Shown here: positions 6,933-61,058 of the stretch, piece by piece
How positions within the stretch are numbered: position 1 is the first letter of the stretch
Layout of the letters: the number at the start of each line of letters is the position of its first letter
NCBI GenBank assembly: GCA_964354405.1
Contig: CAYGZP010000002.1
Location: 71,671 to 135,670 of the forward strand
Direction: 5' to 3'
DNA: 64,000 bases
Source of the DNA: Candidatus Woesearchaeota archaeon
GTDB taxonomy: Archaea > Nanobdellota > Nanobdellia > Pacearchaeales > UBA284
Notes under the pieces: model-generated
The model's database searches: none
Seen by the model: the letters and a program-made list of their open reading frames with translations, nothing else
What the model was told of the DNA's origin: nothing
Translations under genes and position numbers: made by a program

Positions 6933-7976
6933 TCATCTCATCAGTCTAAGAAGATTCTCGCGGAATCTTGGCAAATCCTCAACTTGGGCTGTTGCTCCGC
7001 ATGCTTTTTCATGCCCGCCGCAAGTGCTTTCAATGTTCTCAAGCGCTTTTGTTGTCAAGTCTCGAATGTTAATATTGCCTCTTATAGAAATATTTGCCTT
7101 GGAGCCTCTGATATAAGCCACTACAATAATTCTATCAGGAAATCTATAGATGAGCTCGTTAGAAATCTCCGAGCTCAAGCTCAAATCCCCCCCATACTGG
7201 AAAAATAAAAGTTTTCTGTGAATCTTGGCAAGTTCCTTAGCTCGCTCGATGATTTTTTCATATCTCCTTCCTATTTGCTTGTATCTTCTGTGTATCGAGG
7301 CAGTTTTAGGAGTCACATCAAGAATCTCCCGAGGACTCTTGATTGTCAGCAAGTTCTTTAACATCTTGACAACATTACTCGTTCTGTCCTTGAGCGCAAA
7401 GTTCAACATTTTGATTATCTTGCCTAAATCTGTTTCGTACAATGCTCGCGCTGGATTCTGGGTAAAAGTGAACAAATCCGAGTATTCCTTGGCAAAATCT
7501 TCCGCGAACTCAGGGATAAACCAGTCTGACAAGCATCCCATAAGCGCAATCCACTCATCTTCTTTTTTCTTCACAACCTTATAACACAAGTAAGATGTAG
7601 GAAAATTGCTCTTGGCATCGTTGAGCAAAGGATTGAAATAATGGATTCCTTCTTCATTGTGATACTCGGGAACAGGATGATGGTCTATCCAGATTATAGG
7701 AATATTCCTCTGATGAGCTTCATCTCTGAACTCTTTGTCTATAAGCGGCTTGTCCAAAACAAAAATATAATCTGGCTTGAATTCTTCTAATTTTCTCGCA
7801 TATGCCACATTCAATTGAGGGAAGCTCTTGATGGCAATTCCCTTGCCCTTATCACAGAATCTTCTCAACAGCAAAAAACTTGCCAGTCCATCAACATCAT
7901 TGTCAAAAAAGAATACCGGGTTCTGGGCGCGCTCAAGATAATCTCTGATTTCTTCAAATTGTTTTTGGCTGAGCAT
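6933..7976 (-). CDS. DHH/DHHA1 family phosphoesterase (NrnA/Pde2-like nanoRNase / c-di-AMP phosphodiesterase candidate)
   Basis: 347 aa; motifs FFFDNDVDGLAS (DHH motif I/II), IWIDHHP (motif III, DHH) and C-terminal GGHEKACGA (DHHA1 GGGH motif). Confidence 0.7.
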   Translation of the reverse strand: MLSQKQFEEIRDYLERAQNPVFFFDNDVDGLASFLLLRRFCDKGKGIAIKSFPQLNVAYARKLEEFKPDYIFVLDKPLIDKEFRDEAHQRNIPIIWIDHHPVPEYHNEEGIHYFNPLLNDAKSNFPTSYLCYKVVKKKEDEWIALMGCLSDWFIPEFAEDFAKEYSDLFTFTQNPARALYETDLGKIIKMLNFALKDRTSNVVKMLKNLLTIKSPREILDVTPKTASIHRRYKQIGRRYEKIIERAKELAKIHRKLLFFQYGGDLSLSSEISNELIYRFPDRIIVVAYIRGSKANISIRGNINIRDLTTKALENIESTCGGHEKACGATAQVEDLPRFRENLLRLMR

Positions 7977-8023: not shown

Positions 8024-9133
8024 TTAAATCTTTTTTCCTATCAACGCTTGCTCTTTCAAATTCTCAAGATCTTTGACAAGTTTTCTCGTGTCTTTTTCTC
8101 CAATAAGCCCTGTAAGTTTGCTCGACTGCACGCTTAAAGTATCAATCAAAGCTTGCAAGTTCCCAAAAGTTTCCATAAGTCTCTCGACAGACTCGTGGCT
8201 TATTGAAGTTTTGCTCAATAATCTATAACCTTTTGGTTTGACGGAGTCAGTTATACTTGAATAAAGCAGGATCTGCGCGATATTGCTGGGCTCGAGCAAT
8301 TCATCTAAAGATAATGATGGCAACGCGGTCTTAGAAAAATCCCAATTTCTGCTATAGTCTTTCAAAAGCAAATCTTTCTCTTTCTCCAAATCTTTTATAA
8401 CCTCTTTCAAGAGCATCTTGACAAGGTTTCCCTCGACTCCTAATTCAATGATATATTTTTTTATTGTCCTTGCGATTCTCGATATGATTTCCATTCGCTG
8501 TATGCACAAAGCAACTTCATTGAGGGTTATGAAATTTGTAAATTCAAGAATATTCAAGTTCACGAGCAACTCATTCAAGATTTCTCGATGTTTTTCCAAC
8601 ATTCTCAGAGTTTCAGTAGCCTTGCTCAATATCTCTTCAGAGCTTCTGAGGACATATCTTGTGTTTTTGTAATATAATGTTATAGTTTTTCTTCTTTCCG
8701 AGACTGCTATAACCGGCCTTGTTGTCTGTTTGGCTGTTCTTTCAGCTGCTCTGTGTCTTGTTCCTGTTTCATTAGTATCGATGTTCGCATCCGGCACAAG
8801 CTGGGTGTTGCAGCAAACAATTTTTTTCAAATCATCAGAGAGAATTATAGCACCATCCATCTTGCAAAGCTCAACAAGTTGCTGAGGAGTAAATTTAGAG
8901 CCAATTTTTATGCCGCCGTTAGTAATCTTAAGCACTTCAGGAGAATCTCCCAACACAATCAACGCACCCATCCCCGCACGGGCGATATCTTCTATGGCAG
9001 CGCGCAAATATGTTCCGGGAGTCATTGGCTTTAAAACACTCAAAAGCTCCTCGAACTCTCTCTCTTTCTTCTCATCTTCCAGGGCTTTAAGCTCAAGCTC
9101 TTCCTTAAACTCCTCTTCTTTTTTGTCAGTCAT
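8024..9133 (-). CDS. disA: DNA integrity scanning protein DisA (diadenylate cyclase, DAC domain + linker + HhH)
   Basis: 369 aa; it can be aligned along its whole length to bacterial DisA. Diagnostic motifs are GALIVLG, MDGAIILSDD (DGA) and ETGTRHRAAERTAKQT (RHR). A PKGYRLLSKT linker segment and a C-terminal helix-hairpin-helix region are also present. Confidence 0.85.
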   Translation of the reverse strand: MTDKKEEEFKEELELKALEDEKKEREFEELLSVLKPMTPGTYLRAAIEDIARAGMGALIVLGDSPEVLKITNGGIKIGSKFTPQQLVELCKMDGAIILSDDLKKIVCCNTQLVPDANIDTNETGTRHRAAERTAKQTTRPVIAVSERRKTITLYYKNTRYVLRSSEEILSKATETLRMLEKHREILNELLVNLNILEFTNFITLNEVALCIQRMEIISRIARTIKKYIIELGVEGNLVKMLLKEVIKDLEKEKDLLLKDYSRNWDFSKTALPSLSLDELLEPSNIAQILLYSSITDSVKPKGYRLLSKTSISHESVERLMETFGNLQALIDTLSVQSSKLTGLIGEKDTRKLVKDLENLKEQALIGKKI

Positions 9134-13835: not shown

Positions 13836-14555
13836 TTACAAAGTTTTTAACACTAGCATCAGGGCCAAACCAATTATTATGAAAATGAACTGCAAAAGGG
13901 ATTCTGAAACCCTGGTTTTTTTATGCAATTCTGGAATCAAATCAGTTGCAGCAATATAGATAAAGCCTCCTGCTGCAAATGGCAAAAGAAATGCTACGTT
14001 AATTGCAGAACCAATGAAATAGCCAGTTAATGCCCCAAAGAATGCTGTCAAAGCAATTAAGAAATTATAAAATAGGGCCTTACTTTTCTTGAAACCGCCA
14101 TAAACTAAAACCCCAAATTCTCCTATTTCCTGGGGAATTTCGTGCATGATCACTGCAATCGTAGTTGTAATCCCGAGGTTTAAGTTTATTAAATAAGCAG
14201 CTGCAATGATTAAACCATCAATAAAGTTATGCAAGGCATCGCCGAAAAGAATTGCGTAGTTAAAGGGGTGAATAGAACAATGTTTTTTATGACAGTGCCT
14301 CCAATGCAAAAATTTTTCAAGAATAAAGAAGCTTAGAATCCCAAAAATTACGAATAAAGAAGCTTTTTCTATCCCCAATTCAAGTGATTCTGGCAAAAGA
14401 TGGAAAAAAGCTCCTCCAAGCAATGCACCTGAAGCTAAAGCTATCAATAAGGTAAGGATTTTGTTAAGAAATTTTTCTTTTATTGCTAAAAAGACTATTC
14501 CTACAAGAGATATTAAGCTTACTACAGCTACAGAAATTAAAATCCACAGCAACAT
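13836..14555 (-). CDS. zupT: ZIP family divalent metal transporter (ZupT-like)
   Basis: 239 aa; multi-TM protein with HNFIDGL and HEIPQEIGEFGVL signature motifs. Confidence 0.8.
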   Translation of the reverse strand: MLLWILISVAVVSLISLVGIVFLAIKEKFLNKILTLLIALASGALLGGAFFHLLPESLELGIEKASLFVIFGILSFFILEKFLHWRHCHKKHCSIHPFNYAILFGDALHNFIDGLIIAAAYLINLNLGITTTIAVIMHEIPQEIGEFGVLVYGGFKKSKALFYNFLIALTAFFGALTGYFIGSAINVAFLLPFAAGGFIYIAATDLIPELHKKTRVSESLLQFIFIIIGLALMLVLKTL

Positions 14556-14593: not shown

Positions 14594-15565
14594 CTATAAA
14601 AGTTCCATCGCTTTCTCAAGCATAATCATCTCTTCATTAGCCTTGACAACAGCTGTCCCAAACTTCAAAGGCAGATAGCCGCAGATTTTATTTCTTATGA
14701 ACTCGCTCTCCTCGCCGATTCCCCCAGAGAAAACAACAAAATCAATGTAACCCAATGCAGCTTTGTATGCGCAGACTTGTTTCGCTATATTATAACAGAA
14801 AATATCTAAAGCCTGGGCATTTTTAACATCCCCCCTCCTGTCAACAATCTTTTTTACATCTCTCGAGCCAGTCAAACCATATAATCCACATTCATTATTC
14901 AAAATATCTTTAGCTTTCTTCAATCCAAATTGTTCTACAAGAAACAAAACAATTCCAGGATCTATGCTCCCCGCTCTTGTCACCATCATGATTCCTTCTA
15001 AAGGTGTCAGCCCCATGCTTACATCAAGTGCTTTTCCCTTTGATATAGCTGCAACACTGCATCCCGCTCCGAGATGGCATGAAACAATATTCTTGTCAGG
15101 GAAATGTTTCGCGATATACTCGTGATTCAACCCATGGAACCCATAACGCTTAATTCCATATTTCTTCGAGATTGCCGTCGGCAAAGCATAAGTTTTTGCT
15201 TTGTCAGGAAGCTCAGTAAAGAAAGAAGTGTCAAAGACAGCGATTTGTTTAGCATGTTTCGCGCATTTCTGGGATAACTTGATTACTTCAAGCTCGCGGG
15301 GATTGTGCAAAGGAGCGAACTTAGAGTATTTCACAATCTCCTTAATAATTTTTGCAGTTATGAAACAAGGCTTGCTCAACTCGCCGCCATGAACCACTCT
15401 GTGGGCAATACAAGAAGGATTACATTTCTTCACAGCCTCGCGGACAATCTTCTGATAATCCTTGGATTTGTTTGTACAGAAGGTTTTTTTCTCCTTCAAG
15501 TTCTTGTTATCATAAAAACTGTATTTCACTGTCTCTGAACCAACATTAAATATCAAAAATCTCAT
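14594..15565 (-). CDS. ackA: acetate (acyl) kinase, compact form
   Basis: 323 aa; motifs NVGSETVKY, HRVVHGG, PLHNP, FDTSFF, YGFHGLNH, HLGAGCSV, GLTPLEG...GSIDPG. It overlaps the CooS-like stop by 4 nt. Confidence 0.8.
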   Translation of the reverse strand: MRFLIFNVGSETVKYSFYDNKNLKEKKTFCTNKSKDYQKIVREAVKKCNPSCIAHRVVHGGELSKPCFITAKIIKEIVKYSKFAPLHNPRELEVIKLSQKCAKHAKQIAVFDTSFFTELPDKAKTYALPTAISKKYGIKRYGFHGLNHEYIAKHFPDKNIVSCHLGAGCSVAAISKGKALDVSMGLTPLEGIMMVTRAGSIDPGIVLFLVEQFGLKKAKDILNNECGLYGLTGSRDVKKIVDRRGDVKNAQALDIFCYNIAKQVCAYKAALGYIDFVVFSGGIGEESEFIRNKICGYLPLKFGTAVVKANEEMIMLEKAMELL

Positions 15566-17148
15566 TTTTTAGTTTTTGCCCTCGTTTTTCTTAAGTTTTC
15601 TTTCTTTATTATTCTTTTGAACAAGTGCTCGGGAGAGGTTTCAAGGAAAACTCTGCTTTCAAACTTGTCTCGCAATACATTTTCCAAGAACTGGGCGATG
15701 GTTGTGTCGCTTGATATCATGAAAGGATAGCCAAAATGAACATCGACTCCCAAGGAAGCAAAAAACATTCCAATTGCGATGGCTTTTTCAGTTATCGGCA
15801 TCGGACATGATATCAAGAAAGGCATGTCAGTTATTCTCTTGCCACTCAATTCCGAAATTCTTTTAAAAACTTCCGCGATTCTCGAGTTGTTAACACAAGA
15901 ACCCATGTGATAAACTCGCTTGCCATCCAACAATCCATTCTGTCCGAACTTGAAAGCCATGCATCCTGTAGTAAGAATAATATAATCTTTGCTTAATTTC
16001 TTATATATTGGAATCCAATCTTCTTTAACTCGGGGGTTTGCACATCCAACCACTCCGATAATCCCTTTGACCTTTCCTTTCTCAAGTTGCTCTTGCCATT
16101 TTTGCAGAGGCAAATTGTCCTCGGAAAAACCCACAACAACTTCTCTCCTTACTTTCTTGAGTGAGATTTCCTTTCTCTTTCTTCTGTTCGCTCTTGCAAG
16201 CTGGATAATTTTCTTCGCGTTTTCCTCAGCTTCTTTAGGATTTCTGAAAGGCATATGCATTGCATTAGGGATTCTGCATAATTTGTTAGTTGTTATAAGA
16301 ACAGTATGATAACACTCGCACAAATCAGCCAAGGAGGGCATAATGCATTGAACATCTACAACCATTGCCTCGACAGCTCCTGAAGCAATCACATCCTCCT
16401 GCAGAATAAAATGTGCAGCCATCGGGATTCCATATCTCGCCAGAACACTCGCGCCAGTGCAGCAGACTCCAATCAGATTGATATCTTTATTTTCGGGCTT
16501 TTTCATCTCTTTCGCAAGAGCAATCGCCAACATGGGCTCGTGTCCATGAACCGCGATATTCACTTTATCCTCGCGAATAACCCCCATATCCAAAATTCCC
16601 TTTCTAACTTCAGGCTTGCCATAATATCTGTCCTCAAGTTCTGTAGCGAGATACAATCCATAATAACCGTCAACAATCCCCATCCTCATTGTTCTTTTTA
16701 ATATGCTCGTGTAGTCTGCATCAACACCCATTGATGAGGCATGCAAGGCTTCGCTGATGTCTTTGAAATGCTCAAAATGAATCACAGGCACAATTCCCAA
16801 CTCTTGCCATAACTTGTAAAGATAGCTCGGAGCCTTTTTTTCAATATAAAGTTGAGGATAATCTAATTCCAAAAAGTTTTTGAGATGATAAGCATGTCCG
16901 ACATGGCAAGCTGCTCCTGCAGCTGCAAATCTCAATAAATTGCGAGCCACAACCAAATCTTGATTTGCTCCGCACACTCCTCGTTGTTCTTTTGCCACAA
17001 CTCTGCAAGGCCCCATCAAGCAGTTCCTGCAGCACTTGCCCTGCAATCCTATAGGACAAGGAGCCATTAGTTTCTCCCTTTCGCAAACTAATGGGATATT
17101 GCATTTCTTTTTTTTCTCTATCTTCTTTTTTTTCTTCTCTTTTTTCAT
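15562..17148 (-). CDS. cooS: CooS-family protein (Ni,Fe-CO dehydrogenase catalytic subunit-like), compact
   Basis: N-terminal CPIGLQGKCCRNCLMGPCR...GVCGANQDLVVARNLLRFAAAGAACHVGHAYH matches the CooS B/D-cluster region. Downstream VHGHEPMLAIAL, IGVCCTGAS, TTGCMAF, HMGSCVNNSR and VGCANP match the C-cluster ligand segments. The true start may be the internal MAPCPIG near 17067, because the Lys-rich N-terminus derives from a homopolymer tract. Confidence 0.7.
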   Translation of the reverse strand: MKKEKKKKKIEKKKKCNIPLVCEREKLMAPCPIGLQGKCCRNCLMGPCRVVAKEQRGVCGANQDLVVARNLLRFAAAGAACHVGHAYHLKNFLELDYPQLYIEKKAPSYLYKLWQELGIVPVIHFEHFKDISEALHASSMGVDADYTSILKRTMRMGIVDGYYGLYLATELEDRYYGKPEVRKGILDMGVIREDKVNIAVHGHEPMLAIALAKEMKKPENKDINLIGVCCTGASVLARYGIPMAAHFILQEDVIASGAVEAMVVDVQCIMPSLADLCECYHTVLITTNKLCRIPNAMHMPFRNPKEAEENAKKIIQLARANRRKRKEISLKKVRREVVVGFSEDNLPLQKWQEQLEKGKVKGIIGVVGCANPRVKEDWIPIYKKLSKDYIILTTGCMAFKFGQNGLLDGKRVYHMGSCVNNSRIAEVFKRISELSGKRITDMPFLISCPMPITEKAIAIGMFFASLGVDVHFGYPFMISSDTTIAQFLENVLRDKFESRVFLETSPEHLFKRIIKKENLRKTRAKTKK

Positions 17149-17975
17149 TTTTTCTTTTTTCTCAGTTCATCAACTTGTAGAACAGTTATCGCAGCCAAGT
17201 TTACAATATCTTGTATTGAGCATCCTCTTGACAAATCATTTACTGGCTTGTTCAAGCCCTGTAATATCGGGCCGATAGCATGCCATCCTGCAAATCTTTC
17301 AACAAGCTTGTAGCCAATGTTACCTGCATCGAGGCAAGGGAAAATCAAAACATTATAAGCTAAAGCTTTCGCGCCCTTCATTCTGGCTACATTCAAGTTC
17401 AGCGCCGCGTCAGCTTGAATCTCACCTTCAACATTCAAATCTGTTTGTTTTAAAATTTTTACAGCCTCGCGCACATTATCAACACTCAAGCCCTTGCCCG
17501 AGTCCTTGGTAGAATAAGACAACATCGCTACTACAGGCTCAGTTTTTGTGATAAGTTTGAAAGTTTTCGCGCTCAGCTCTGCAATTTCAGCGAGCTGTTC
17601 TGGATTCGGCTCAGGCTGCGCAGCGCAGTCAGCGAAGAGCATCGCGCTTTTCTTGTCAGGCGATATCATGAGAAAAGCACCGCTGGTTCTCTTGACTTCT
17701 GGCGCCATAAACTTAAAAGCAAGATATAATGTCATCGAGCTTGAATGAGAAGCTCCAGTTATTATCGCATCTGCCTCGTTGTTGTGCAGCATTAACTCTG
17801 CTTTCTCAAGATTTTTCTCAATTCTCCTGTCTTTCAATGTAATCACTTTAGCTATATTTTCATCTTCTATAATTTGTATCGCTTTGTTCACTCTAGAATC
17901 CTGCTCGGGAAAAACAATCCTCACAACTCGATGTTTGTTAATCCCTCTAGCTCTTTTTCTTATATTCTCAATCAT
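17145..17975 (-). CDS. pta: phosphate acetyl/butyryl-transferase (Pta/Ptb family)
   Basis: 276 aa; it has the fold signature of Pta/Ptb phosphotransacylases and its stop overlaps the CooS-like start (ATGA). Confidence 0.75.
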   Translation of the reverse strand: MIENIRKRARGINKHRVVRIVFPEQDSRVNKAIQIIEDENIAKVITLKDRRIEKNLEKAELMLHNNEADAIITGASHSSSMTLYLAFKFMAPEVKRTSGAFLMISPDKKSAMLFADCAAQPEPNPEQLAEIAELSAKTFKLITKTEPVVAMLSYSTKDSGKGLSVDNVREAVKILKQTDLNVEGEIQADAALNLNVARMKGAKALAYNVLIFPCLDAGNIGYKLVERFAGWHAIGPILQGLNKPVNDLSRGCSIQDIVNLAAITVLQVDELRKKKK

Positions 17976-17993
17976 CTCGACCTCTTTTTATTA

Positions 17994-18581
17994 CTATCTC
18001 AAAGCTTTTCCAAAAACTTTTTTATTTTCTTCCAAGAACTGCGGCCTTATCCTTTCCTTGATTGCTTCCCATAGTTTTTCTTTTTTGAACGGCAGTGCTT
18101 TCTTTTTCAAGGCATAACCCACCATAAAAATATTAGTTCCTGTTACATTGCCTGTCTCTTTCCTCACAATCGCATCAGCATCCACAACATAAACTTTTTT
18201 TGAAATCTTTTTTAATTTTTTCACAATATCCTGCAAACTCAATGACGAGCGGAAGGCTTTTGCATTTACAATGAATACAGTTTCCTTGTTCGCCCAATAG
18301 CTCGCGCGCAAAGCCTCCAAAGCCTCGAGAGCAATAATCAAGTCAGCATCGCCTTTCATCACAACTGGCGAATAAACTTTTGAGCCAAATCTGACATGAC
18401 AATCCAAAGCGCCTCCGCGCTGAGCCAACCCATGCAACTCAGATTGTTTCACATCATATTTGTGTTTCAGGGCAGCTTGGGCAATAATCTCAGCAATAGT
18501 CAATATTCCTTGTCCTCCATATCCTCCGACAATCAAATTAAAATTTTTATTTTTCTCTTTTTTATTAATTTTCTTTTCCAT
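17994..18581 (-). CDS. iorB: indolepyruvate:ferredoxin oxidoreductase subunit beta (IorB; 2-oxoacid OR gamma-type domain)
   Basis: 195 aa; IVGGYGGQGILT motif of the pyruvate/2-oxoacid:ferredoxin oxidoreductase gamma domain; lies directly downstream of the IorA-like gene. Confidence 0.7.
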   Translation of the reverse strand: MEKKINKKEKNKNFNLIVGGYGGQGILTIAEIIAQAALKHKYDVKQSELHGLAQRGGALDCHVRFGSKVYSPVVMKGDADLIIALEALEALRASYWANKETVFIVNAKAFRSSLSLQDIVKKLKKISKKVYVVDADAIVRKETGNVTGTNIFMVGYALKKKALPFKKEKLWEAIKERIRPQFLEENKKVFGKALR

Positions 18582-18591
18582 TTTATTTTTC

Positions 18592-20412
18592 CTATTTCTC
18601 CTCTTTGACTTCTTCTTTTACAATCTCAATGCAATCAGGATAAAGTTGTTTACACACAGAGCAGCTCCAGCACAAGTTCTTATCAATAAACCATTTGCTT
18701 TTCTTTCCTTTTTCTTTCTGAATTGCAGGACAATCAAATTTTGCTAACTCATTCAATTCAGGTTTTTGTTTGATAATCTGATATTTTGGAAGTTTCACTC
18801 CCTTTCGCGAAGCTTGTCTCACGAAAGCCAAGCGACATTCTCCCTTTGCTACTATAACAGAAACTCCTTGAGACTCATAAGCATCCTTGATATCGCTGCA
18901 CAATTTGTCAAAATTGTAAACCTGAGATGTCTTTACAAAATCAACTTTGCATGCTTTAGCAATTTGCTCTATATCGATGACTTTTGTCTCATCTCCCATC
19001 GCTGTGATTCCTGTGACCGGATTTGGCTGATGTCCTGTCATCGCAGTCCATCTATTATCAAGAACGATGACAAGAGCATTTGCTTTATTATAAACCAAAT
19101 TTAACAGAGCAGGAATGCCTCCATGCAAGAAAGTCGAATCTCCGACAAAAGCAACAGTTTTCTTGCCGGTTGTTTTAGAAATTCCATGCGATATTCCAAT
19201 TCCAGCACCCATGCTGACAATATAATCAGGAAGTTTGAATGGCTCGGTTGCTGCTAAAAGATAACATCCTATGTCTCCACCAAAAATCTTATCTTTGCCC
19301 AGGACTTTGGAAACAGCATAAAATGTCGCGCGATGAGGACATCCAGGACAAAAGAAAGGCAATCTTCTCTCAACTTCAACAGAAGCTCGTAAAATTTCTT
19401 CTGAAACTGGCTTGTTTAATATTTTTGCCAATCCCATAAGAACAATTTCGGGTTTCAGTTCTCCTGTTTCAGAGAAAAATTGTTTTCCATAAACCTTCAA
19501 CGAGCATAATTTCTTGATTTCTTCCTCGATAATCGGATCAAGCTCTTCGATAATCACAACTTCTTGCAGATTTTTCATAAATCCCTTGATTTTTTCAGCG
19601 GGGAACGGATAACTGAAGCCAAGCTTGGACAAAGGCAATTTAATATTTAATTTGTCAAAAGCCTCTCGAACATAATCATAACTAACTCCAGAAGTGATAA
19701 TTCCTATCTTGCCCTCTCCTTTCTCAATCGAGTTGAAAACTGATTTTTCAGAAAGCTCTTTTATCTTAACAATTTTTTCAAGAATTTTTTTATGCAAGCC
19801 TACAGTTACTGCACAGCCAATATTAAACTCCTTTTTCTTAAAGCTCGCTTGAGTTCTTGTCTTGACAATTCGCCCAAAGTTAACAATCGACTTGGCATAG
19901 GAAACTCGCGTTGTGAGTCTGATAATCACAGGAGTCTTGTAAAGCCACGCCAAAGAGAACGCAGCTTTAGTCATATCCAAAGCCTCTTGCGCGTTACTTG
20001 GCTCGAACATCGGAATTTTGCTCAACTTTGCAAAGTGCCTCGAATCTTGCTCTGTCTGTATAGAGCTGAAACATCCAGGATCATCTGCAACTACAACAAC
20101 TATTGGACAAGAAAAATAAGCCAGAGGCATCAATGAGTCAAGAGCAACATTCAATCCATAATGTTTCATTGCTACGAGAGATTTTGCTCCAGAGAACGCA
20201 GCTCCAGCAGCAGCTTCCAAAGCAACTTTTTCATTAACGCTCCACTCAAAATAAATTCCTGTCTCTTGGGCAATGCTCGCGAATGTGTTGCCTATTTCAC
20301 TCGCAGGAGTGCCAGCATAGCTAGAAGCAAAGCTCATGCCTGATTCCAAAGCACCGCGAACAATGGCCTCATTGCCAAATATTAAACCTCTTTTATCTTT
20401 CAACACTTCCAT
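18592..20412 (-). CDS. iorA: indolepyruvate:ferredoxin oxidoreductase subunit alpha (IorA)
   Basis: 606 aa; TPP-binding domains (GDIGCY, GDSTFLHGG) and a C-terminal CPGCPH...ferredoxin-like CWSCSVC cluster; the size and layout fit IorA. Confidence 0.75.
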   Translation of the reverse strand: MEVLKDKRGLIFGNEAIVRGALESGMSFASSYAGTPASEIGNTFASIAQETGIYFEWSVNEKVALEAAAGAAFSGAKSLVAMKHYGLNVALDSLMPLAYFSCPIVVVVADDPGCFSSIQTEQDSRHFAKLSKIPMFEPSNAQEALDMTKAAFSLAWLYKTPVIIRLTTRVSYAKSIVNFGRIVKTRTQASFKKKEFNIGCAVTVGLHKKILEKIVKIKELSEKSVFNSIEKGEGKIGIITSGVSYDYVREAFDKLNIKLPLSKLGFSYPFPAEKIKGFMKNLQEVVIIEELDPIIEEEIKKLCSLKVYGKQFFSETGELKPEIVLMGLAKILNKPVSEEILRASVEVERRLPFFCPGCPHRATFYAVSKVLGKDKIFGGDIGCYLLAATEPFKLPDYIVSMGAGIGISHGISKTTGKKTVAFVGDSTFLHGGIPALLNLVYNKANALVIVLDNRWTAMTGHQPNPVTGITAMGDETKVIDIEQIAKACKVDFVKTSQVYNFDKLCSDIKDAYESQGVSVIVAKGECRLAFVRQASRKGVKLPKYQIIKQKPELNELAKFDCPAIQKEKGKKSKWFIDKNLCWSCSVCKQLYPDCIEIVKEEVKEEK

Positions 20413-20468
20413 CTTACTTCTGTTTCAATGTTTTTTGAATTTAAAAAGTTTTATTAAAAAGCTGATGA

Positions 20469-20738
20469 TTAACAGTTGATTTTCAGCTCCTTTGCGTTTA
20501 CTATGGCATCTGACACCTTTTTTCTTGCTTTTAGCAAAACCCTATGAAATGTGGGTTGGGAGATTCCCATGGCTTTTGCAGCCTTTTTCTGCTCCATCCC
20601 TATAACATCTTTGAGCCTTAAGGCTTCCAGCTCCTCTCTCGCCAAGTACAAAGTATCGAGGACGAGTGGTACAATTGGTACAAAATCCTCGCACTTTATT
20701 TCACAGCTTGTTTTTTTCAGTTTTTTTGGGCGCGCCAT
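20469..20738 (-). CDS. DUF134 (UPF0251) family predicted DNA-binding regulator
   Basis: MARPKKLKK...LYLAREELEALRLKDVIGMEQKKAAKAMGISQPTFHRVLLKARKKVSDAIVNAKELKI matches the DUF134 pattern, a sigma-70 region-4-like HTH. The track ORF (to 20936) probably over-extends the N-terminus. Confidence 0.6.
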   Translation of the reverse strand: MARPKKLKKTSCEIKCEDFVPIVPLVLDTLYLAREELEALRLKDVIGMEQKKAAKAMGISQPTFHRVLLKARKKVSDAIVNAKELKINC

Positions 20739-20909
20739 TTTCAGTGACAGCATTAGCCAGAGCCAGTGACACCTCCTCTTACTCAGTAGATATATTATGA
20801 ATATATATTCATAACCATATTTAAATATTTCTATCTTGTCACTATTCTGTTTTTGATATAACTTTCTGAGCACAATAATCTTTTTTAGGGGTAGAAAAAT
20901 AATAGGGCC

Positions 20910-21635
20910 ATGGTTGAGGGATTTAGCGAAGCACATTTAGAATTTATTCAACATTTAAAACCACAATTAGTTGAGCACGACTACATTGTTCCACTAAAAA
21001 ATTTTGATGAGTTGCATAGAATACTTTCTCATTTATCTTGCGGTGCGCGCAAATTATCAAATGAAGAATATGGTTATTTTGGTGCTCGTAATTTATACAG
21101 TACTCTACGATTTTGTAAATTTTGTCCAGTTGAAGATTTACCAACGCTCTATGCTGGAACAAGCAGCGAGGGTCTCGGGGCTTTTATAGGTTTCCCAAAA
21201 GAAATTTATCAAATAACTACTTCTATTGGTGTAGAATTCGGCAAGGCAGAAGAAATGCTTCGCGCCTATTTAAATACATGGCATAAAATTTTAGAAAATA
21301 AATCTCTTGAATTATTGTCAGATTCAGAAAATGAACATTTTCCAACTCGTAGCATTGCTAATAACAGCCCGATTAATGAGATGTTCTTTTCATTCTGGGA
21401 TCTTTTGTTTGATTTAGAAGAAGTTGTAAAAAAGAAAGAAGAACATCCACATGGTGATAAGTATAAGTATAAATTTAAGATTTGTTCAGATCATAACAAT
21501 GAAGATTCTTTGTCGCAATTAAGACCTATATACATAGAAATGACAAGAGGGCGCTTTAAGAAGTATGATTTAGCTCTTCAAGAGGGGGATATAGAAATTA
21601 TTTTTAGTAAAAAGAAAATTTTTAGTTTAGATTAA
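20910..21635 (+). CDS. hypothetical protein (241 aa)
   Basis: Intact ORF divergent from the DUF134 gene; no recognisable motif. Confidence 0.4.
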   Translation: MVEGFSEAHLEFIQHLKPQLVEHDYIVPLKNFDELHRILSHLSCGARKLSNEEYGYFGARNLYSTLRFCKFCPVEDLPTLYAGTSSEGLGAFIGFPKEIYQITTSIGVEFGKAEEMLRAYLNTWHKILENKSLELLSDSENEHFPTRSIANNSPINEMFFSFWDLLFDLEEVVKKKEEHPHGDKYKYKFKICSDHNNEDSLSQLRPIYIEMTRGRFKKYDLALQEGDIEIIFSKKKIFSLD

Positions 21636-29454: not shown

Positions 29455-29874
29455 ATGACAACAATTCATTATGAAAATGCCGAGGACATCAAGAGAAAAA
29501 TTGAATTAATTGTCCGAATTCTCGATATGAAACATGTCAATCCATCTCGAGTCTATTGTATCAGGAGCCATGGCTCGAGTTCTCGAGGAATAATCGCGAG
29601 ATGTCATTCGCTGCCAAAAATCATGCAGCAAGTTCTCGCGATAGAGCCCGCATACATAATTGAGGTTATCAGCGAGAGTTTTGACAAGCAAAAGGAAGAA
29701 GAACAAGTCAAAACTTTAATTCATGAACTCATGCACATCCCAAAAACATTCGGCGGAGGATTCTTGCATCACAATGTTGTGACTCGAACAAAAATAGACA
29801 GACTTTACAACAAATTCCGCCAGTTCCAAAGTTCGTCGCTGTCAAGTAAAAATATCGTCGAGCAAAAGATTTAA
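29455..29874 (+). CDS. putative HExxH zinc metallopeptidase (SprT/WLM-like minimal zincin)
   Basis: 139 aa; single LIHELMHIP HExxH motif followed by a Gly-rich segment (KTFGGGFLHHN). Confidence 0.4.
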   Translation: MTTIHYENAEDIKRKIELIVRILDMKHVNPSRVYCIRSHGSSSRGIIARCHSLPKIMQQVLAIEPAYIIEVISESFDKQKEEEQVKTLIHELMHIPKTFGGGFLHHNVVTRTKIDRLYNKFRQFQSSSLSSKNIVEQKI

Positions 29875-37515: not shown

Positions 37516-39081
37516 ATGGCTCTGCCACCACCATCATTCAAAGCTTCCGCGCTTCCCAAACCCGCCCATCCTGTAATAAATCTTAACCCGGAGATTCCTC
37601 GGCTGCGAAGGGTTGAAGACAAGACAAAAATTAATGTAAGATATGCATTGATTGTTCCTCATGCAACTGTGCATATATACTGGAATCCGAACATCGGCGA
37701 GGTTATCTATGAGATTGAAGAGCCCCTTCTGAACGAAACCGAAGTCAAGATTCTTGGCGAGTTGGAGACAGGGATGTATGAATTGATTAATCTTGGAGCT
37801 GTAGTTGAAAAAACCCAAGAAGCATTGCTAAGTTATCTCGAGAAGATGGCAAGATTGCTGTTGAAAGAGCTTGGAAGAAGCATCAATGAGGAGAGTTATG
37901 GCAGAATTTTCTACTATCTATATCGCGACTTCATAGGATTGAATGAAATCGAACCAATGTTGCGCGATTTTTTCATTGAAGATATTGAGTGCAACGGAGT
38001 CGGAACTCCAGTATATGTTGTTCACCGAGTCTATCGAAACCTAAGGACAAATTTAATCTACAAAGATATGAACAGGGCCGCGAGTTTCGTAGAAAAGTTA
38101 GCACAAAGATGCGGGCGCTATGTTTCATATGCCTCCCCACTCTTGGATGGAACTCTTCCAGATGGCTCAAGAGTCAATGCAACTTACACAACAGAAGTCT
38201 CAAGCAGGGGGCCAACATTCACAATAAGAAAATTCACAAAAGTCCCTTGGACGCCTGTTCAACTTATCTCAATGAATACTCTCTCGCCAGAAATGTTAGC
38301 TTATTTCTGGATATTGATGCAATATAAGTGTAACATTCTTGTGGCAGGAGGCACTGGCTCGGGCAAGACATCCTTGCTAAATGCATTTGCGTTTTTCATT
38401 CCTCCAGAAGCGCGAGTTGTTTCAGTTGAAGACACTCGTGAGATTAATTTGCCAAGAGAAAACTGGCTGCCAAGTGTCGCGAGAACAGGACTTCCAGGAG
38501 GAGTTGGAGAGGTAGATATGTTCGCCCTGCTCAAAGAAAGCTTCAGGCAAAATCCAGATTATGTTATTGTTGGAGAAGTCAGAGGAAAAGAAGCCTTTGT
38601 ATTATTCCAGGCAATGGCATCTGGCCACCCAAGCTTGAGCACAATGCACGCAGAATCAGTTGAAACAGTGATTCGAAGATTAGAAACCCCGCCGATTAAC
38701 TTGAGCCCAACACTAGTCAATAGCTTGGACGCAGTTGCTATAATGACTCATGCACTCGTGGGCAAGCAGGAAACAAGACGATTGAAAGAAATAGTTGAAG
38801 TTATCGATGTCACAGCAGAAGGTGTCGCAGTAACCAACACTCCATTTGCATGGAATCCTGCAGAGGATAAATTTTATTTCAAGACAGAGAGCAAAGTTTT
38901 CGAGAAGATAATAAAACGATATGGCTTGAAGAAAGAACAACTCGCAGAGGAATTCAAATTAAGAACAAAGTTGCTTTACACATTATTCAAGAAAAAAATA
39001 TTTGATTTTGAAACAGTACAGAAAATAATCAATGAGTATTACAAGAACCCTTCAGGTGTATTGAAAAGATACTCCATATAA
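37516..39081 (+). CDS. type IV pilus/archaellum-family secretion ATPase (TadA/FlaI/PilB-like)
   Basis: 521 aa; Walker A VAGGTGSGKTSLLNA, Asp/His boxes (VVSVEDTREI, GEVRGKEA) and a GHPSLSTMHA motif, as in the VirB11/FlaI superfamily. Confidence 0.8.
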   Translation: MALPPPSFKASALPKPAHPVINLNPEIPRLRRVEDKTKINVRYALIVPHATVHIYWNPNIGEVIYEIEEPLLNETEVKILGELETGMYELINLGAVVEKTQEALLSYLEKMARLLLKELGRSINEESYGRIFYYLYRDFIGLNEIEPMLRDFFIEDIECNGVGTPVYVVHRVYRNLRTNLIYKDMNRAASFVEKLAQRCGRYVSYASPLLDGTLPDGSRVNATYTTEVSSRGPTFTIRKFTKVPWTPVQLISMNTLSPEMLAYFWILMQYKCNILVAGGTGSGKTSLLNAFAFFIPPEARVVSVEDTREINLPRENWLPSVARTGLPGGVGEVDMFALLKESFRQNPDYVIVGEVRGKEAFVLFQAMASGHPSLSTMHAESVETVIRRLETPPINLSPTLVNSLDAVAIMTHALVGKQETRRLKEIVEVIDVTAEGVAVTNTPFAWNPAEDKFYFKTESKVFEKIIKRYGLKKEQLAEEFKLRTKLLYTLFKKKIFDFETVQKIINEYYKNPSGVLKRYSI

Positions 39082-39113
39082 ATCGATATAATCACCCAAA
39101 AAAATAAGTAAAA

Positions 39114-39290
39114 ATGATAACACAGCAAAAGATAACTTTTATTCTGCAGCTCGTGAATTCAACACAAGAAGTTCTAGCAGCTTTGGAAAAAGCCGCAAGA
39201 CAGGGCTTCAAGCCCGAGTTCGAGTCAGTAAAGCAAGAGTTGTTGAATATGCTTAATGAAGTAAAAGGAGAAATCAAGAATTTGAGATAA
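39114..39290 (+). CDS. possible small helical ORF (58 aa), not in track
   Basis: ATG-to-TAA ORF between the ATPase and platform genes (MITQQKITFILQLVNSTQEVLAALEKAARQGF...); no upstream SD is evident. Confidence 0.25.
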   Translation: MITQQKITFILQLVNSTQEVLAALEKAARQGFKPEFESVKQELLNMLNEVKGEIKNLR

Positions 39291-39324
39291 GATAAAAAAT
39301 AAAGCAAAGTAAAATGATAAAAAA

Positions 39325-40623
39325 ATGCAAGAGATAGTTAAGATAAAAGCAAATTTGGAACAGGCAAAGAAAATATTGCAGGAGTTGAACTCTGTTGCTC
39401 TAGCTAACACAAGAGCAAAGATAGATGAGCGAACACTTTTAGAAAAAACTTCCAAATCTCTTGTAGACCAATTATCCATGCTCTATGAACCTCTGCCAAG
39501 TCTCGCACAAAATATAATTTATGAAGGCAAGCGAGCTCCTGAGAAGCCCACAGCAAAAAAAGAAACAACAATTGTTGAAGTCGAGAGAATTCCAACAGCA
39601 GGCGGCTCAGTATATGTCACAACAGAAGGAAAAGAAAAGTTTCTTGAAGAATTAAATCTAAGCTCAAAGCAACTTAAAGAGGCGAAAGCAAAAATATTCA
39701 AGAAAAAAGGGAAAGAGAAAGAGCAAGAAGATATAACATTTGGTATAAAACCCTCGAGTCTTGGAGCATTTTCAAGCAAGCTTTTCGGCGAGTTTTCATC
39801 AGGCCTGACTAAAGCCTCGTTATTCAAAAGCGTCGAGAGAGACTTGAGAAAAGCGAACATGCCATTCATGCTCTCTACTTATATCTCCATAATATTTTTC
39901 TGGACTTTCCTCGCATTCTTTGTTTCATTGATTGTCGCGCTGGCAGTAAGCTTTGCGATGAACGAAGCCATTCTTGGAATAGTGAGAAATATTGGTTTAG
40001 GGGTGCTCGCCACTGTTGTTGTGTTTCTTGTAGCGCTGACATATCCTGCTAACATCGCAGGGGGCAACAGAAGAAAGATTAACTCTGAGCTTCCTTTCGC
40101 AGCAGCGCACATGGCAGCGATAGCCTCAAGTAAAGTTGAGCCTTCAAAAATTTTCGCGATAATGGCTCTGACAAAAGAATATAAAGCATTTGGCGCCGAG
40201 ATTCGCAAAATTGTGAATCAGATAAATGTCTATGGCTATGATTTAACAACAGCTTTGAGAAACGCAGCTAAAACCAGCCCAAGCAAAAGACTCGCGGACT
40301 TGTTCGGCGGCATGGTCACAACAATCACAACCGGAGGCAACTTGACAACATATCTCCAGGAAAAATCCAAATCTCTTTTAATTGATTACAGGCTCAGCCA
40401 CGAGCGTTACACAAATGTTATAGGGATGTATTCTGACATCTACACCGCGCTGCTTATTGCCGCTCCTCTAATCTTCATGCTTCTCTTGGCAATAATCTCA
40501 ATCATGGGCTCGACTTTCTTGGCAATGGATATCACAACTCTCGCTAATCTTGGGATAATTATCATTGCCGCACTCAACATATTATTTCTGGTATTCCTTA
40601 AATTCACCCAACCCGAAGTTTAA
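39325..40623 (+). CDS. T2SS-F domain membrane platform protein (TadC/FlaJ-like)
   Basis: 432 aa; soluble N-terminal region then TM helices flanking a cytoplasmic T2SSF-type domain (LPFAAAHMAAIASSKVEP...YLQEKSKSLL). Confidence 0.65.
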   Translation: MQEIVKIKANLEQAKKILQELNSVALANTRAKIDERTLLEKTSKSLVDQLSMLYEPLPSLAQNIIYEGKRAPEKPTAKKETTIVEVERIPTAGGSVYVTTEGKEKFLEELNLSSKQLKEAKAKIFKKKGKEKEQEDITFGIKPSSLGAFSSKLFGEFSSGLTKASLFKSVERDLRKANMPFMLSTYISIIFFWTFLAFFVSLIVALAVSFAMNEAILGIVRNIGLGVLATVVVFLVALTYPANIAGGNRRKINSELPFAAAHMAAIASSKVEPSKIFAIMALTKEYKAFGAEIRKIVNQINVYGYDLTTALRNAAKTSPSKRLADLFGGMVTTITTGGNLTTYLQEKSKSLLIDYRLSHERYTNVIGMYSDIYTALLIAAPLIFMLLLAIISIMGSTFLAMDITTLANLGIIIIAALNILFLVFLKFTQPEV

Positions 40624-40655
40624 AAAATTTCAAAAAAAAGAAAATAAAAAATAAA

Positions 40656-41510
40656 ATGATAAGCAAACCACAAATCACAGGCATTATAATAGGATTAGTC
40701 ATGGCTATCCTTAGCTATATTATTTTTCCCCAGTCAAAAATATTCTGGTTTTTGCTAGGCATTTCAATACTTGTCGCCGGCATCCCATTCCTCGCATCAA
40801 TGATAGTTGAGAGGGGCAGAGAGAAAGAAAAAGAAGAATTGTTCCTTGCTTTTGCTCTTGATTTAGTAGAAAGTGTCAAGGCTGGCGCCCCAATTTCAAA
40901 GAGCATTGTTCAAATAGCTCAGAAAGATTATGGCTCGCTAACCCCGCATGTAAAGAAACTCGCGAATCAGGTTGCTCTTGCCATTCCAGTAAGACAAGCT
41001 CTAAGAACTTTTGCTTCTGACATAAACAATAAAGTCATCTCGCGCAGTATCGAGCTCATAATTGAAGCCGAGGCTTCTGGAGGAGAGATAGGCAAGATAA
41101 TTGATGCAGTTGTCAAGAGCGTTACAGAAATAGAGGATTTGAAAAAAGAACGAGCCTCAAGAATCTTTGGCATGGTTGTCCAAGGATATATCATCTTTTT
41201 CATATTCGTTGCTATAATGTTGTTTGTTGAAATCAAGTTCATGCCTTTAATCACTGGCGCGCTATCAGGAACACAGATGCCTACAGGCACAGTCGGAGTA
41301 GGAAGCACAAGTTTCACTTTAGGAGGAAGCGTTTCACAAGCCATAATCGAACGTTCATTTTTCATCCTATTGCTCATGCAAGCATTGTTCGCAGGCTTAG
41401 TTATAGGAAAGTTAAGCGAGGGCTCAATCAAGTATGGAATCAAACACAGCGCCATTCTCTTGGCAGTCGCTTATCTTACTGTGACAGCTGCTCGAGCGCT
41501 CGTGGCATAA
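40656..41510 (+). CDS. T2SS-F domain membrane platform protein (TadB/FlaJ-like)
   Basis: 284 aa; TM helices flanking a T2SSF-like helical domain (ALDLVESVKAGAPISKSIVQIA...). Confidence 0.6.
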   Translation: MISKPQITGIIIGLVMAILSYIIFPQSKIFWFLLGISILVAGIPFLASMIVERGREKEKEELFLAFALDLVESVKAGAPISKSIVQIAQKDYGSLTPHVKKLANQVALAIPVRQALRTFASDINNKVISRSIELIIEAEASGGEIGKIIDAVVKSVTEIEDLKKERASRIFGMVVQGYIIFFIFVAIMLFVEIKFMPLITGALSGTQMPTGTVGVGSTSFTLGGSVSQAIIERSFFILLLMQALFAGLVIGKLSEGSIKYGIKHSAILLAVAYLTVTAARALVA

Positions 41511-60255: not shown

Positions 60256-60627
60256 TCACTTATCTTTCTCAAAGAATTTGAATGTCGACGCAATATCAAT
60301 GATATACTTGCCTTCCTCAAGCTTGTAGATGACTGGTTTTTTCTTGAACAGCGATACAATATCAATCTCAAACTTGCCTGGTTTGGTTATTTTAATTGAT
60401 TCCAAGTCAAGAATCACTGGTTTATCAATCTCCGACCCTATAACCTCTTTGATATCCTCCATAATCTCCTCTCTCTCAACCTTTGTCAATTTCTCAGTCT
60501 CTTCTTTCATCAATATATCTTCATTCCTGAAAAAGAAAAAATAATGGCTCCCGCATTCACAGCCTTTCAAAATCTCAGGAGCTGTTGACTCATAAATATT
60601 GCCGCATTTAACACATCTGTGACTCAT
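60256..60627 (-). CDS. zinc-ribbon domain protein (123 aa)
   Basis: CVKCGN...x14...CECGS ribbon at the N-terminus followed by a Lys/Glu-rich domain. Confidence 0.4.
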   Translation of the reverse strand: MSHRCVKCGNIYESTAPEILKGCECGSHYFFFFRNEDILMKEETEKLTKVEREEIMEDIKEVIGSEIDKPVILDLESIKITKPGKFEIDIVSLFKKKPVIYKLEEGKYIIDIASTFKFFEKDK

Positions 60628-60674
60628 GATTAATTTAAAACTCGATAGTTTTTATTCTTTTCTATGATTCAGGA

Positions 60675-61058
60675 CTATTTTCTAAGAAGCAGTTGTAATT
60701 TTGTCGGGTCTTTTTTGATTTCCCGCACAACTGTTGCTGGCCCGATTATTGTGAAAACATCACGATTAGCACCAAGTAAAGCTTTGGCGAGATTTTCCTT
60801 GATTGACTGTCCGAAAGGCAAGTTTTTTGTTTTTGGTGCGAAACTTGCAAGCTCGATGCCCTTGAATCTCGAGCTCCCCCGAATCTTTTTCATTGTCTCT
60901 TGAATTAAATCAGCTTCCTCTTCCGAAGCGAGTTTACCCTGAACAAGAAGAATCTTGTCTTCTGTAACCAAATCTATAAGTCTTTTAACTCTCTGAAATG
61001 AAGTTAGATAAGCAATTTCACCATAAGGCACAAATTGTAATGTTACATTTTTTGCCAT
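60675..61058 (-). CDS. hypothetical protein (127 aa), weak SepF-like alpha/beta pattern
   Basis: KILLVQGKLASEEEADLIQETMKKIRG resembles the SepF core (vVvnL..l..e.a.RiiDFl.G); weak, inference only. Confidence 0.25.
   Translation of the reverse strand: MAKNVTLQFVPYGEIAYLTSFQRVKRLIDLVTEDKILLVQGKLASEEEADLIQETMKKIRGSSRFKGIELASFAPKTKNLPFGQSIKENLAKALLGANRDVFTIIGPATVVREIKKDPTKLQLLLRK

Follow-up and report, generated by a model that had tools for sequence, protein, structure and literature searches.

To our knowledge, most monofunctional carbon monoxide dehydrogenases (CODHs) of the CooS type that occur outside carboxydotrophs are without an established physiological role. In the 64-kb stretch of contig CAYGZP010000002.1 studied here (termed the window; coordinates follow its numbering unless another locus is named), the gene for a shortened CooS is embedded between the genes for phosphate acetyltransferase (pta) and acetate kinase (ack) of a Pacearchaeota-type DPANN archaeon, next to genes for the indolepyruvate-type 2-oxoacid:ferredoxin oxidoreductase IorAB.

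Among characterized enzymes, CODH-IV from Carboxydothermus hydrogenoformans (PDB entry 6elq) is the top match of the window CooS in sequence (1.3e-99) as well as in fold, and the ligands of the B-, C- and D-clusters are common to both; the window protein, however, is ~32% identical and ~100 residues shorter, is flanked by pta and ack instead of oxidative-stress genes and has no cooF-like partner. In acetogenesis and aceticlastic methanogenesis, CODH, Pta and Ack likewise belong to one acetyl-CoA-centered pathway built around CODH/acetyl-CoA synthase. In the 64-kb window, on the other hand, genes for acetyl-CoA synthase (AcsB/CdhC), a corrinoid protein and the methyl branch are all missing, the CODH is of the CooS and not of the AcsA/CdhA type, and acetyl-CoA would come from the 2-oxoacid oxidoreductase. 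CO as a fermentation-linked redox intermediate is also part of a CO cycling proposal for Desulfovibrio vulgaris, reportedly made by Voordouw in 2002, in which CO stems from pyruvate metabolism and is handled by a monofunctional CooS; there, CooS together with the Coo membrane hydrogenase and CooC re-oxidizes CO in the same cell, whereas such partners are not seen at the window locus. In DPANN genomes, genes for 2-oxoacid:ferredoxin oxidoreductases often adjoin a gene for a ferredoxin-reoxidizing [FeFe] hydrogenase (Greening et al. 2024, PMC11216029). These pairs have the DPANN hosts, the ferredoxin-reducing decarboxylase encoded beside a miniaturized ferredoxin-reoxidizing enzyme, and the formation of acetate and ATP via Ack or Acd in common with the window, while the sink proposed below would be CO2/CO and not H+/H2 and the CODH gene lies inside pta-ack rather than beside the oxidoreductase genes. 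A 732-aa protein from the same phylum (PIU75765.1, Candidatus Pacearchaeota CG06_land_8_20_14_3_00_35_12) consists of an N-terminal ferredoxin:thioredoxin-reductase-like (FtrB-like) domain fused to CooS (Inoue 2019, supplement). With a complete ligand set on record and a COG0822 (NifU/IscU) neighbor it resembles the compact CooS family; compared by description only, it differs in its assignment to clade F "others" and in its lack of a pta-ack context. Finally, the mini-CooS found in Thermosinus carboxydivorans (482 aa, clade G) carries many internal deletions but has kept all cluster-binding Cys and His residues (Techtmann 2012, PMC3328121; Inoue 2022, PMC8776680), as is the case in the DPANN clade. 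Mini-CooS, which was also compared by description only, is bacterial, adjoins cooF and is reported to have its branching position between clade A and the remaining clades, whereas the DPANN proteins score best to clade E/F and very poorly to CdhA; miniaturization of the DPANN proteins was likely an independent event.

While the CooS enzyme family and all parts of the pathway are already known, the miniaturized clade, its CooC-less context and the operonic wiring appear to be new. The literature covered, which includes the genomic-context surveys of 2019, 2022 and 2026 and is incomplete, describes neither a compact CooS clade spanning DPANN nor any CODH that is placed inside pta-ack or associated with IorAB. 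The 2026 eLife survey of CODH genomic contexts mentions neither acetate kinase nor Pta nor DPANN, and CODH genes of Pacearchaeota and Woesearchaeota are noted in passing only, e.g., in Woesearchaeota metagenome-assembled genomes (MAGs) and in one Pacearchaeota entry (Inoue 2019).

The list of open reading frames (ORFs) combined with Pfam and NCBIfam profile searches yielded a minus-strand gene order from 20738 to 13836 that begins with a DUF134 gene and ends with a gene for a ZIP transporter (Table 1). A sequence-only reading of this stretch had named six genes (DUF134, IorA, IorB, Pta, CooS-like and Ack); all six identities hold in the profile searches, and the tight packing with two ATGA overlaps that it had described is present in the sequence. 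The stop codon of pta and the start codon of cooS share four nucleotides at 17145-17148, and those of cooS and ack do so at 15562-15565; the gaps between the remaining genes amount to 56 nt (DUF134/iorA), 10 nt (iorA/iorB), 18 nt (iorB/pta) and 38 nt (ack/ZIP), and a convergent Nre gene bounds the region past ZIP. With regard to the limits of the operon, the proposed order from DUF134 to ack stands, while the transcription unit appears to be shifted: DUF134 may have a transcript of its own, separate from iorA-to-ack, because the spacer between DUF134 and iorA is AT-rich with TATA-like runs (TTTTTAATAAAA/TTTTTAAATT) and a T-tract, and the unit probably reaches 13836 with ZIP as its last gene, because ZIP lies closely behind ack on the same strand and likewise follows ack in the related locus L084. 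Neighboring genes encode EF-2, S7, S12, L15e, a DHH protein, deoxyhypusine synthase and a transglutaminase, and the nearest relatives of the operon genes are found in MAGs of Pacearchaeota-type DPANN archaea. Neither cooC, cooF nor acsB was found around the operon in the 64-kb window, and the same holds true for hydrogenase genes and for ferredoxin ORFs with a CxxCxxCxxxC motif; without cooC, cooF and acsB nearby, the locus is not a Wood-Ljungdahl or CODH-hydrogenase cluster. There is good support for reading this locus as an operon for ferredoxin-linked substrate-level phosphorylation in a DPANN archaeon of the Pacearchaeota type.

Table 1. Features of the iorAB-pta-cooS-ack operon (window coordinates) and of a recurring cooS cassette in other loci.
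Feature	Position	Strand	Remarks
DUF134 helix-turn-helix protein	20469..20738	-	89 aa from ATG at 20738; PF02001; possible regulator
AT-rich spacer with TATA-like elements and T-run	20413..20468	-	Read from sequence; candidate archaeal promoter for iorA-to-ack and possible DUF134 terminator
IorA, alpha subunit of indolepyruvate-type 2-oxoacid:ferredoxin oxidoreductase, thiamine pyrophosphate (TPP)-binding	18592..20412	-	606 aa; TIGR03336, PF01855, PF02775
IorB, beta subunit	17994..18581	-	195 aa; PF01558, 1.6e-35
Compact phosphate acetyltransferase Pta	17145..17975	-	276 aa; PF01515, 7e-74
CooS, apparently a compact Ni,Fe-CODH catalytic subunit	15562..17148	-	528 aa; PF03063, 9e-109
Compact acetate kinase Ack	14594..15565	-	323 aa; PF00871, 8.6e-81
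ZIP-family metal transporter	13836..14555	-	239 aa; PF02535, 7e-43
Recurring cooS cassette	L004 2999-9566; L005 2967-9614; L011 2118-7279; L091 2093-10972		Distant DPANN genomes

Pta, CooS and Ack are all clearly shorter than their canonical counterparts, a DPANN-type compactness that the sequence-only reading had missed, and all three stay under the NCBIfam equivalog cutoffs. CooS reaches 364.9 bits against PF03063 (cutoff 27) and 341 bits against TIGR01702 (cutoff 478), where model positions 155-609 of 621 are matched; the shortfall arises because ~100 residues are deleted. Canonical proteins have ~630 aa and members of the clade ~500 aa, and compared with the former the window CooS lacks ~15 N-terminal residues, 51 after residue 94 (in the N-terminal helical domain), 7 after 216, 6 after 346 and 19 after 410. 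None of the ligands is affected. In an alignment of 42 DPANN family members with 53 canonical CooS sequences, the B/D-cluster cysteines C31, C39, C40, C43, C48 and C59 (C-x7/8-CC-x2-C-x4-C ... C) as well as H82, H85, D160, H201, H203, C229, C230, C268, C369, C396, C418 and K455 do not vary among the 42 DPANN proteins; of the 53 canonical sequences, 52-53 keep the same columns, apart from the C39 column, where 46 have Cys. These residues align to the CODH-IV motifs HGH, CCTG, VQCIMPS, GC-N, TGC, GSCV-NSR and EKA, and we take them to comprise the C-cluster ligands (one His, five Cys) and the equivalents of the His93/Lys563 acid-base pair of CODH-II. An AlphaFold (AF2) model (pLDDT 80.7, pTM 0.82) displays the CODH three-domain fold and is matched by Foldseek with a probability of 1.00 and TMq values of 0.77-0.79 to CODH-IV (6elq, 0.79), Thermococcus AM4 CODH, D. 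vulgaris CODH and CODH-II (6t7j, 6b6v and 1su6 besides 6elq). Among PDB sequences, active clade E/F enzymes score 270-337 bits, CODH-V 135, CdhA at most 56 and hybrid cluster protein (HCP) at most 35. Judged from conservation and predicted fold, CooS thus appears to be the intact catalytic subunit of a Ni,Fe-CODH, compact in size but retaining all ligands.

The sequence-only reading had also considered an HCP-like or other non-CODH role, which the profile comparison contradicts for HCP: TIGR01703 gives 47 bits against a cutoff of 360.8 and NF003658 40 against 367, and PDB chains of HCP match at E ~1e-7 in the C-terminal third only. A different version of a non-CODH role is that the protein, lacking CooC, carries a Ni-free Fe-S cluster and functions as a redox protein, a sensor or some other reductase, a role suggested for clades B, C and D and for CODH-V. 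A motif search and tblastn detected no CooC-like ORF in the 64-kb window or at any of 25 related DPANN loci, as compared to ~24 of 68 non-DPANN CooS loci with adjacent cooC, and the score under the TIGR01702 cutoff, the ~100 deleted residues and the annotation of relatives as hypothetical proteins by NCBI all fit a departure from CODH function. CODH-II and CODH-IV, however, have been produced in active form in Escherichia coli without CooC. Non-canonical CODH clades are typically substituted in C-cluster or acid-base residues (Inoue 2019), while here every ligand, the His/Lys acid-base residues and D160 are invariant, and CODH-V is matched with less than half the bits of the best active clade E/F enzymes. 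We therefore regard a Ni-free scaffold as quite unlikely.

The start codon at 17148 is supported by the alignment of residues 15-27 with canonical CooS N-termini and by the absence of any further ATG, GTG or TTG between 17148 and M28; a start at M28 (17067) would turn the pta/cooS overlap into a 78-nt gap. Long poly-A tracts at 15565-15610 and 17100-17175, i.e., at both junctions of cooS, encode Lys-rich tails (Pta C-terminus ELRKKKK, CooS N-terminus MKKEKKKKKIEKKKK, CooS C-terminus KTRAKTKK), and the N-terminal extension of the window CooS is not common to its relatives, which are ~15 aa shorter. Neither the exact 528-aa protein nor the 501-aa form starting at M28 is contained in a collection of 15 billion proteins, although that collection does list the IorA, Pta, Ack and ZIP proteins of this deposited contig; gene calling for the deposit may have missed cooS or marked it as a pseudogene. 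The short protein, the poly-A tracts, which could hide frameshifts, and the absence from the collection next to four listed neighbors would all suit a decaying fragment or an assembly artefact of gene order. Such an explanation is effectively refuted by the uninterrupted ORF of 528 codons, by more than 100 homolog clusters of the same length of ~500 aa, and by the recurrence of the gene order in independent NCBI, ENA, JGI and Logan assemblies including an independent Logan contig that is 100% identical across cooS-ack-ZIP. Pseudogene status was rejected in view of the discrete same-length family, the full ligand set, the discrete deletions and the matching fold; the sequence-only reading was thus correct in placing an intact CooS-family protein between pta and ack.

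Comparison of gene order in relatives revealed that this embedding is not due to chance. The arrangement pta-cooS-ack occurs in seven lineages, namely in the window, L001/L082/L083 (74-76% CooS identity to the window protein), L081 (79%), L084 (79%), L085 (78%), L089 (75%) and L086 (71%), and these loci were drawn from independent NCBI, ENA, JGI and Logan assemblies. Their CooS sequences form a single subclade in a neighbor-joining tree, which indicates a single origin of the arrangement, although it is now found in at least four chromosomal neighborhoods: with L44e/S3Ae genes in L082 and L085, with Fe-S and thiol-redox genes in L081 and L084, adjoining a gene for a collagen-like protein in L086 and amid the translation-related and other genes named above in the window. 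The cooS/ack ATGA overlap recurs in L081, L084 and L086, and CooS is probably co-translated with Pta and Ack. The conserved core is pta-cooS-ack, with or without iorAB; iorAB lies upstream of the trio in the window, L081 and L084 and downstream of ack in L086, so that it joined the trio in two independent arrangements. L084 nearly replicates the window with the order DUF134, EncFtn/rubrerythrin-like gene, iorA, iorB, pta, cooS, ack and ZIP. In the complete genome CP070794.1, pta and ack overlap by 4 nt amid the same EF-2, S7, S12, L15e, DHH, deoxyhypusine synthase and transglutaminase genes as in the window, while a compact cooS is located ~120 kb away. Since pta-ack is uninterrupted there in the same surroundings, this pair is ancestral and cooS came in later by insertion. 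It is well supported that cooS entered a pre-existing, coupled pta-ack, that tight coupling persisted or was restored at both junctions and that the trio has been inherited as a unit since.

The partners of CooS would make up the route to ATP. IorA passes TIGR03336 by 9 bits only (660 vs. 650.9) and is 71% identical to its orthologs in L081 and L084; for IorB, the best NCBIfam models are all beta subunits of this oxidoreductase, yet the score stays below cutoff (158.9 vs. 237). The match of Pta to PF01515 (249.5 bits) is confined to profile positions 101-319 of 319, and the score of 244 bits against TIGR00651 (cutoff 311) falls short since positions 1-100 of the profile are largely missing; its best PDB matches are phosphate acetyltransferases, with which the ...NKPVNDLSRGCSIQD... 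motif and the C-terminal catalytic motif DLSRG...D align identically. Ack reaches 272 bits against PF00871 and 270.8 against TIGR00016 (cutoff 293.4), and its best PDB match is acetate kinase from Thermotoga maritima (2iir, 1.4e-62). Residues N7, G9, S10, R56, D112, F143, H144, P188 and E311 are invariant among 17 DPANN homologs, and the residues V, L, F and P that presumably line the acetate pocket (motifs HRVVHGG, PLHNP, GFHG and TPLEG) are present. Residues 233-238 (14852-14869) read SRDVKK, with Lys in place of the second catalytic Arg in SSDMRD of T. maritima, and Lys at this position is also the consensus among the 17 DPANN compact Ack sequences. Compact Ack proteins of ~320-350 aa are widespread in DPANN and occur in some Patescibacteria. 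Alternative identities were rejected for both enzymes, as butyrate kinase models give 68-84 bits vs. 270 for AckA and Ptb models 20-24 vs. 244-260 for Pta; from their sequences, Ack and Pta look to be of the acetate type and not of the butyrate or branched-chain types. Of the proposed route from aromatic 2-oxoacids to ATP, substrate-level phosphorylation via IorAB, Pta and Ack therefore stands, while aromatic fermentation is not specifically supported because Ack and Pta look acetate-type, although IorA narrowly passes its model. The case for aromatic substrates is weak.

The compact CooS proteins constitute a DPANN-specific clade according to the sequence comparisons. More than 100 clusters at 90% identity, ~500 aa in length and 49-79% identical to the window CooS, all originate from MAGs of Pacearchaeota, Woesearchaeota, Nanoarchaeota or Aenigmatarchaeota. 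Among species-representative genomes, identity to the window protein drops from 57% in DPANN to at most 37% in all others, and clustering at 50% identity leaves one representative for the whole family. In a neighbor-joining tree of 95 sequences, computed without references for clades A-D, G and H and without an outgroup, the DPANN proteins are monophyletic on a long branch and lie outside the groups with sequences labeled F-1 (Azotobacter, L066) and E-1 (Desulfoluna) following the classification of Inoue 2019. The next-nearest 50%-cluster representative, P0241 (659 aa, 43% identical), contains the compact core at residues 26-513 and a C-terminal extension of ~145 aa without Pfam match.

For the function of the operon we propose the following. 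IorAB would oxidize a 2-oxoacid, yielding acyl-CoA and CO2 along with reduced ferredoxin; the compact Pta would then turn acyl-CoA into acyl-phosphate, from which the compact Ack would form the acid and ATP. CooS would share the ferredoxin pool and the CO2 with the co-transcribed oxidoreductase, equilibrating the pool with the CO2/CO couple, and would be produced only at times of ferredoxin reduction and CO2 release. Catalysis by Ni-CODHs is near-reversible, and because CooS would be made together with ferredoxin reduction, net flux during 2-oxoacid oxidation would most likely run as CO2 + 2 Fd(red) -> CO + H2O. CO2 would thus provide an electron sink requiring a single gene and replacing hydrogenase, with CO held low by neighboring or host CO consumers; with CO available, the reaction would reverse and CO would act as ferredoxin reductant. 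Net CO2 reduction as electron sink is favored because cooS shares its message with the genes for the oxidoreductase, from which both reduced ferredoxin and CO2 arise, and we assign this reading, reversible when CO is present and inferred as to flux direction, a probability of about 0.4.

The potentials involved allow such a flux. E0' is ~ -520 mV for CO2/CO and ~ -500 mV for acetyl-CoA+CO2/pyruvate, and since these values are so close, the conversion of 2-oxoacid, ADP and Pi to acid, CO and ATP is calculated to be near equilibrium at 1 atm CO, whereas CO at ppm level renders it clearly exergonic. With CO in the ppm and CO2 in the percent range, the calculated potential of the CO2/CO couple rises to ~ -390 mV, such that a ferredoxin pool driven by the oxidoreductase can push CO2 to CO. 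A precedent for the logic of an electron sink is provided by the DPANN oxidoreductase genes that adjoin [FeFe] hydrogenase (PMC11216029). Tentatively, and by analogy with interspecies H2 transfer, CO from a CooC-independent Ni-CODH could be a fermentation gas formed from 2-oxoacids that derive from amino acids or pyruvate, with "interspecies CO transfer" to CO-consuming methanogens, acetogens or sulfate reducers as hosts or neighbors; we hold this extension to be possible but doubtful.

A number of observations weigh against net CO2 reduction. On thermodynamic grounds, H2 would be easier to evolve than CO. L082, L085 and L089 carry pta-cooS-ack without iorAB within the DNA examined. The absence of cooC from the window and from the 25 related loci counts here as well; according to PDB titles, D. 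vulgaris and Thermococcus AM4 CODHs that were crystallized after production without CooC form separate entries, and the AM4 entry is titled as Ni-free. More distant compact cooS genes, with less than ~70% identity (57-70%), are not found with pta and ack, and 10 of the 15 loci outside the pta-ack subclade carry at least one neighbor gene from a set that comprises thioredoxin or glutaredoxin, a thioredoxin-reductase-like flavoprotein (Pyr_redox_2, ~300 aa) encoded directly downstream of cooS, rubrerythrin, membrane proteins of the SfLAP and CBU_0592 families, ThiI, NifU, cysteine desulfurase and DUF1858. In more distant DPANN genomes, a cassette recurs that consists of ThiI, rubrerythrin, a 140-aa ORF, an SfLAP membrane protein, a CBU_0592-family protein, cooS and this flavoprotein (Table 1); it may constitute an electron route from CO to thiols or peroxide. 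The cooS-IV cluster, presumably with genes for rubrerythrin and a flavoprotein oxidoreductase, is of similar make-up, and the family context argues that compact CooS proteins ancestrally oxidize CO and feed thiol or peroxide reduction. CODH-IV, the nearest solved structure, has been described as a CO scavenger, and the Pacearchaeota protein in which CooS is fused to an FtrB-like domain also points to CO oxidation (Inoue 2019, supplement).

The family context favors an explanation in which CooS oxidizes trace CO as a second ferredoxin-reducing enzyme beside IorAB and is simply co-regulated with ior, pta and ack as genes for anaerobic energy and reductant supply, without coupling of their metabolism, the reduced ferredoxin serving thioredoxin/glutaredoxin reduction, rubrerythrin-type peroxide removal and biosynthesis. 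Besides the neighbors in the 10 of 15 loci and the match to CODH-IV, it can draw on L081, where the ior-pta-cooS-ack block remains bordered on either side by thiol-redox and Fe-S genes, on L084, which keeps the NifU, HAD, DUF1858, DAC and cysteine desulfurase set after ZIP and has the EncFtn/rubrerythrin-like gene within the operon, and on the FtrB-like-CooS fusion, where electrons could pass only from CO to a disulfide. It leaves unexplained, however, the exact placement of cooS between pta and ack with translational coupling, the travel of the trio through at least four neighborhoods and its two independent joinings with iorAB. Furthermore, none of the thiol-redox genes of the family context is present within the 64 kb of the window, and at ppm CO (~ -390 mV) ferredoxin would not be reduced further than an active oxidoreductase already does. 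We consider a CO scavenger, which is the main rival reading, possible, albeit doubtful.

All four activities would also be required in the reverse direction, and every step is reversible. Ack and Pta could then activate scavenged acetate or aryl acids to acyl-CoA, and IorAB could act as a 2-oxoacid synthase with CO-reduced ferredoxin, supplying pyruvate or arylpyruvates for gluconeogenesis and amino acids. CO/CODH-driven pyruvate synthesis by pyruvate:ferredoxin oxidoreductase has been demonstrated in vitro for acetogens and Methanosarcina, IOR-dependent assimilation of aryl acids occurs in Methanococcus maripaludis, a phosphoenolpyruvate synthase/pyruvate phosphate dikinase-type gene is located at 283-2712 of the window, and salvage would be valuable for DPANN archaea that are without most biosynthesis. 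Such an assimilatory route nevertheless appears unlikely, as it would call for CO far above typical environmental levels or for very low product pools and would cost ATP although energy is presumably limiting for these organisms; an aminotransferase gene is absent from the vicinity, and three lineages are without iorAB beside the trio.

Two further genes frame the operon. In the proposed electron-sink operon, DUF134 may regulate the unit and ZIP may bring metal. DUF134 scores 66.1 bits against PF02001 (cutoff 27, 4.5e-18) with a match to aa 67-151 of a long ORF (20469-20936); because the match begins only at residue 67, the ATG at 20738 (MARPKKLKK...) is a sensible start and, with the in-frame ATG at 20753 as an alternative, most likely the true one. 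A DUF134 gene heads the same operon upstream of iorA in L084, and in the distant genome L091 it lies 3.3 kb from cooS without ior, pta or ack nearby, whereas DUF134 is absent from the L081, L082, L085 and L086 loci. The suggested role as a dedicated regulator is accordingly doubtful; a regulatory link is possible and would concern cooS no less than ior. A perfect 20-bp palindrome (TTATGAATAT/ATATTCATAA) at 20795-20814, ~57 nt upstream of the DUF134 start, sits in the divergent spacer shared with a plus-strand ORF (20910-21635) and could be an operator or promoter element. At the other end, L084 contains a ZIP ortholog (66% identical) 7 nt after ack, and another ZIP gene occurs near cooS in L087; that ZIP supplies metal to the unit is speculation.

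The remainder of the window also encodes ribosomal L15e and L10e, aEF-2, deoxyhypusine synthase and Nre, which mark the organism as an archaeon; neither a tRNA gene nor an Rfam family at gathering threshold was found in positions 1-64000. The origin-associated genes OapC (PF09845) and OapB (PF09846) are adjacent at 60256-61058, a replication origin may lie near 61-62.6 kb, and a nearby 432-aa ORF (62603-63901) has no Pfam match. A gene for a DisA-type diadenylate cyclase (8024-9133) adjoins one for a DHH/DHHA1 phosphoesterase (6933-7976), likely a pair for c-di-AMP synthesis and breakdown; a shorter gene with a diadenylate cyclase (DAC) domain recurs in the Fe-S/cooS neighborhood of L081 (11903-12547), L084 (8726-9358) and L090 (2454-3056). 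A small ORF (29455-29874) next to the S12/S7/EF-2 cluster matches "putative phage metallopeptidase" (PF18894, 1.4e-22), and a type IV pilus/archaellum-like set at 37516-41510, comprising a T2SSE ATPase and two T2SSF membrane proteins, may be relevant to how a DPANN archaeon such as this one attaches to its host.

The genomic wiring of this CODH is unusually explicit, since it is coupled to the ATP-forming acetate enzymes and encoded beside a ferredoxin-reducing decarboxylase in an organism with almost no spare genes. If CooS reduces CO2, CO would be a previously unrecognized fermentation end-product of DPANN archaea and a syntrophic currency; if it oxidizes CO, trace CO would be a source of reductant for ultra-small symbionts. 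In either direction, a CooS of ~500 aa that has the full ligand set and apparently does without CooC would be attractive as a minimal scaffold in biocatalytic CO2 reduction and would offer a clean way to learn which parts of CooS can be dispensed with, and the role of orphan CooS enzymes becomes a directly testable question.

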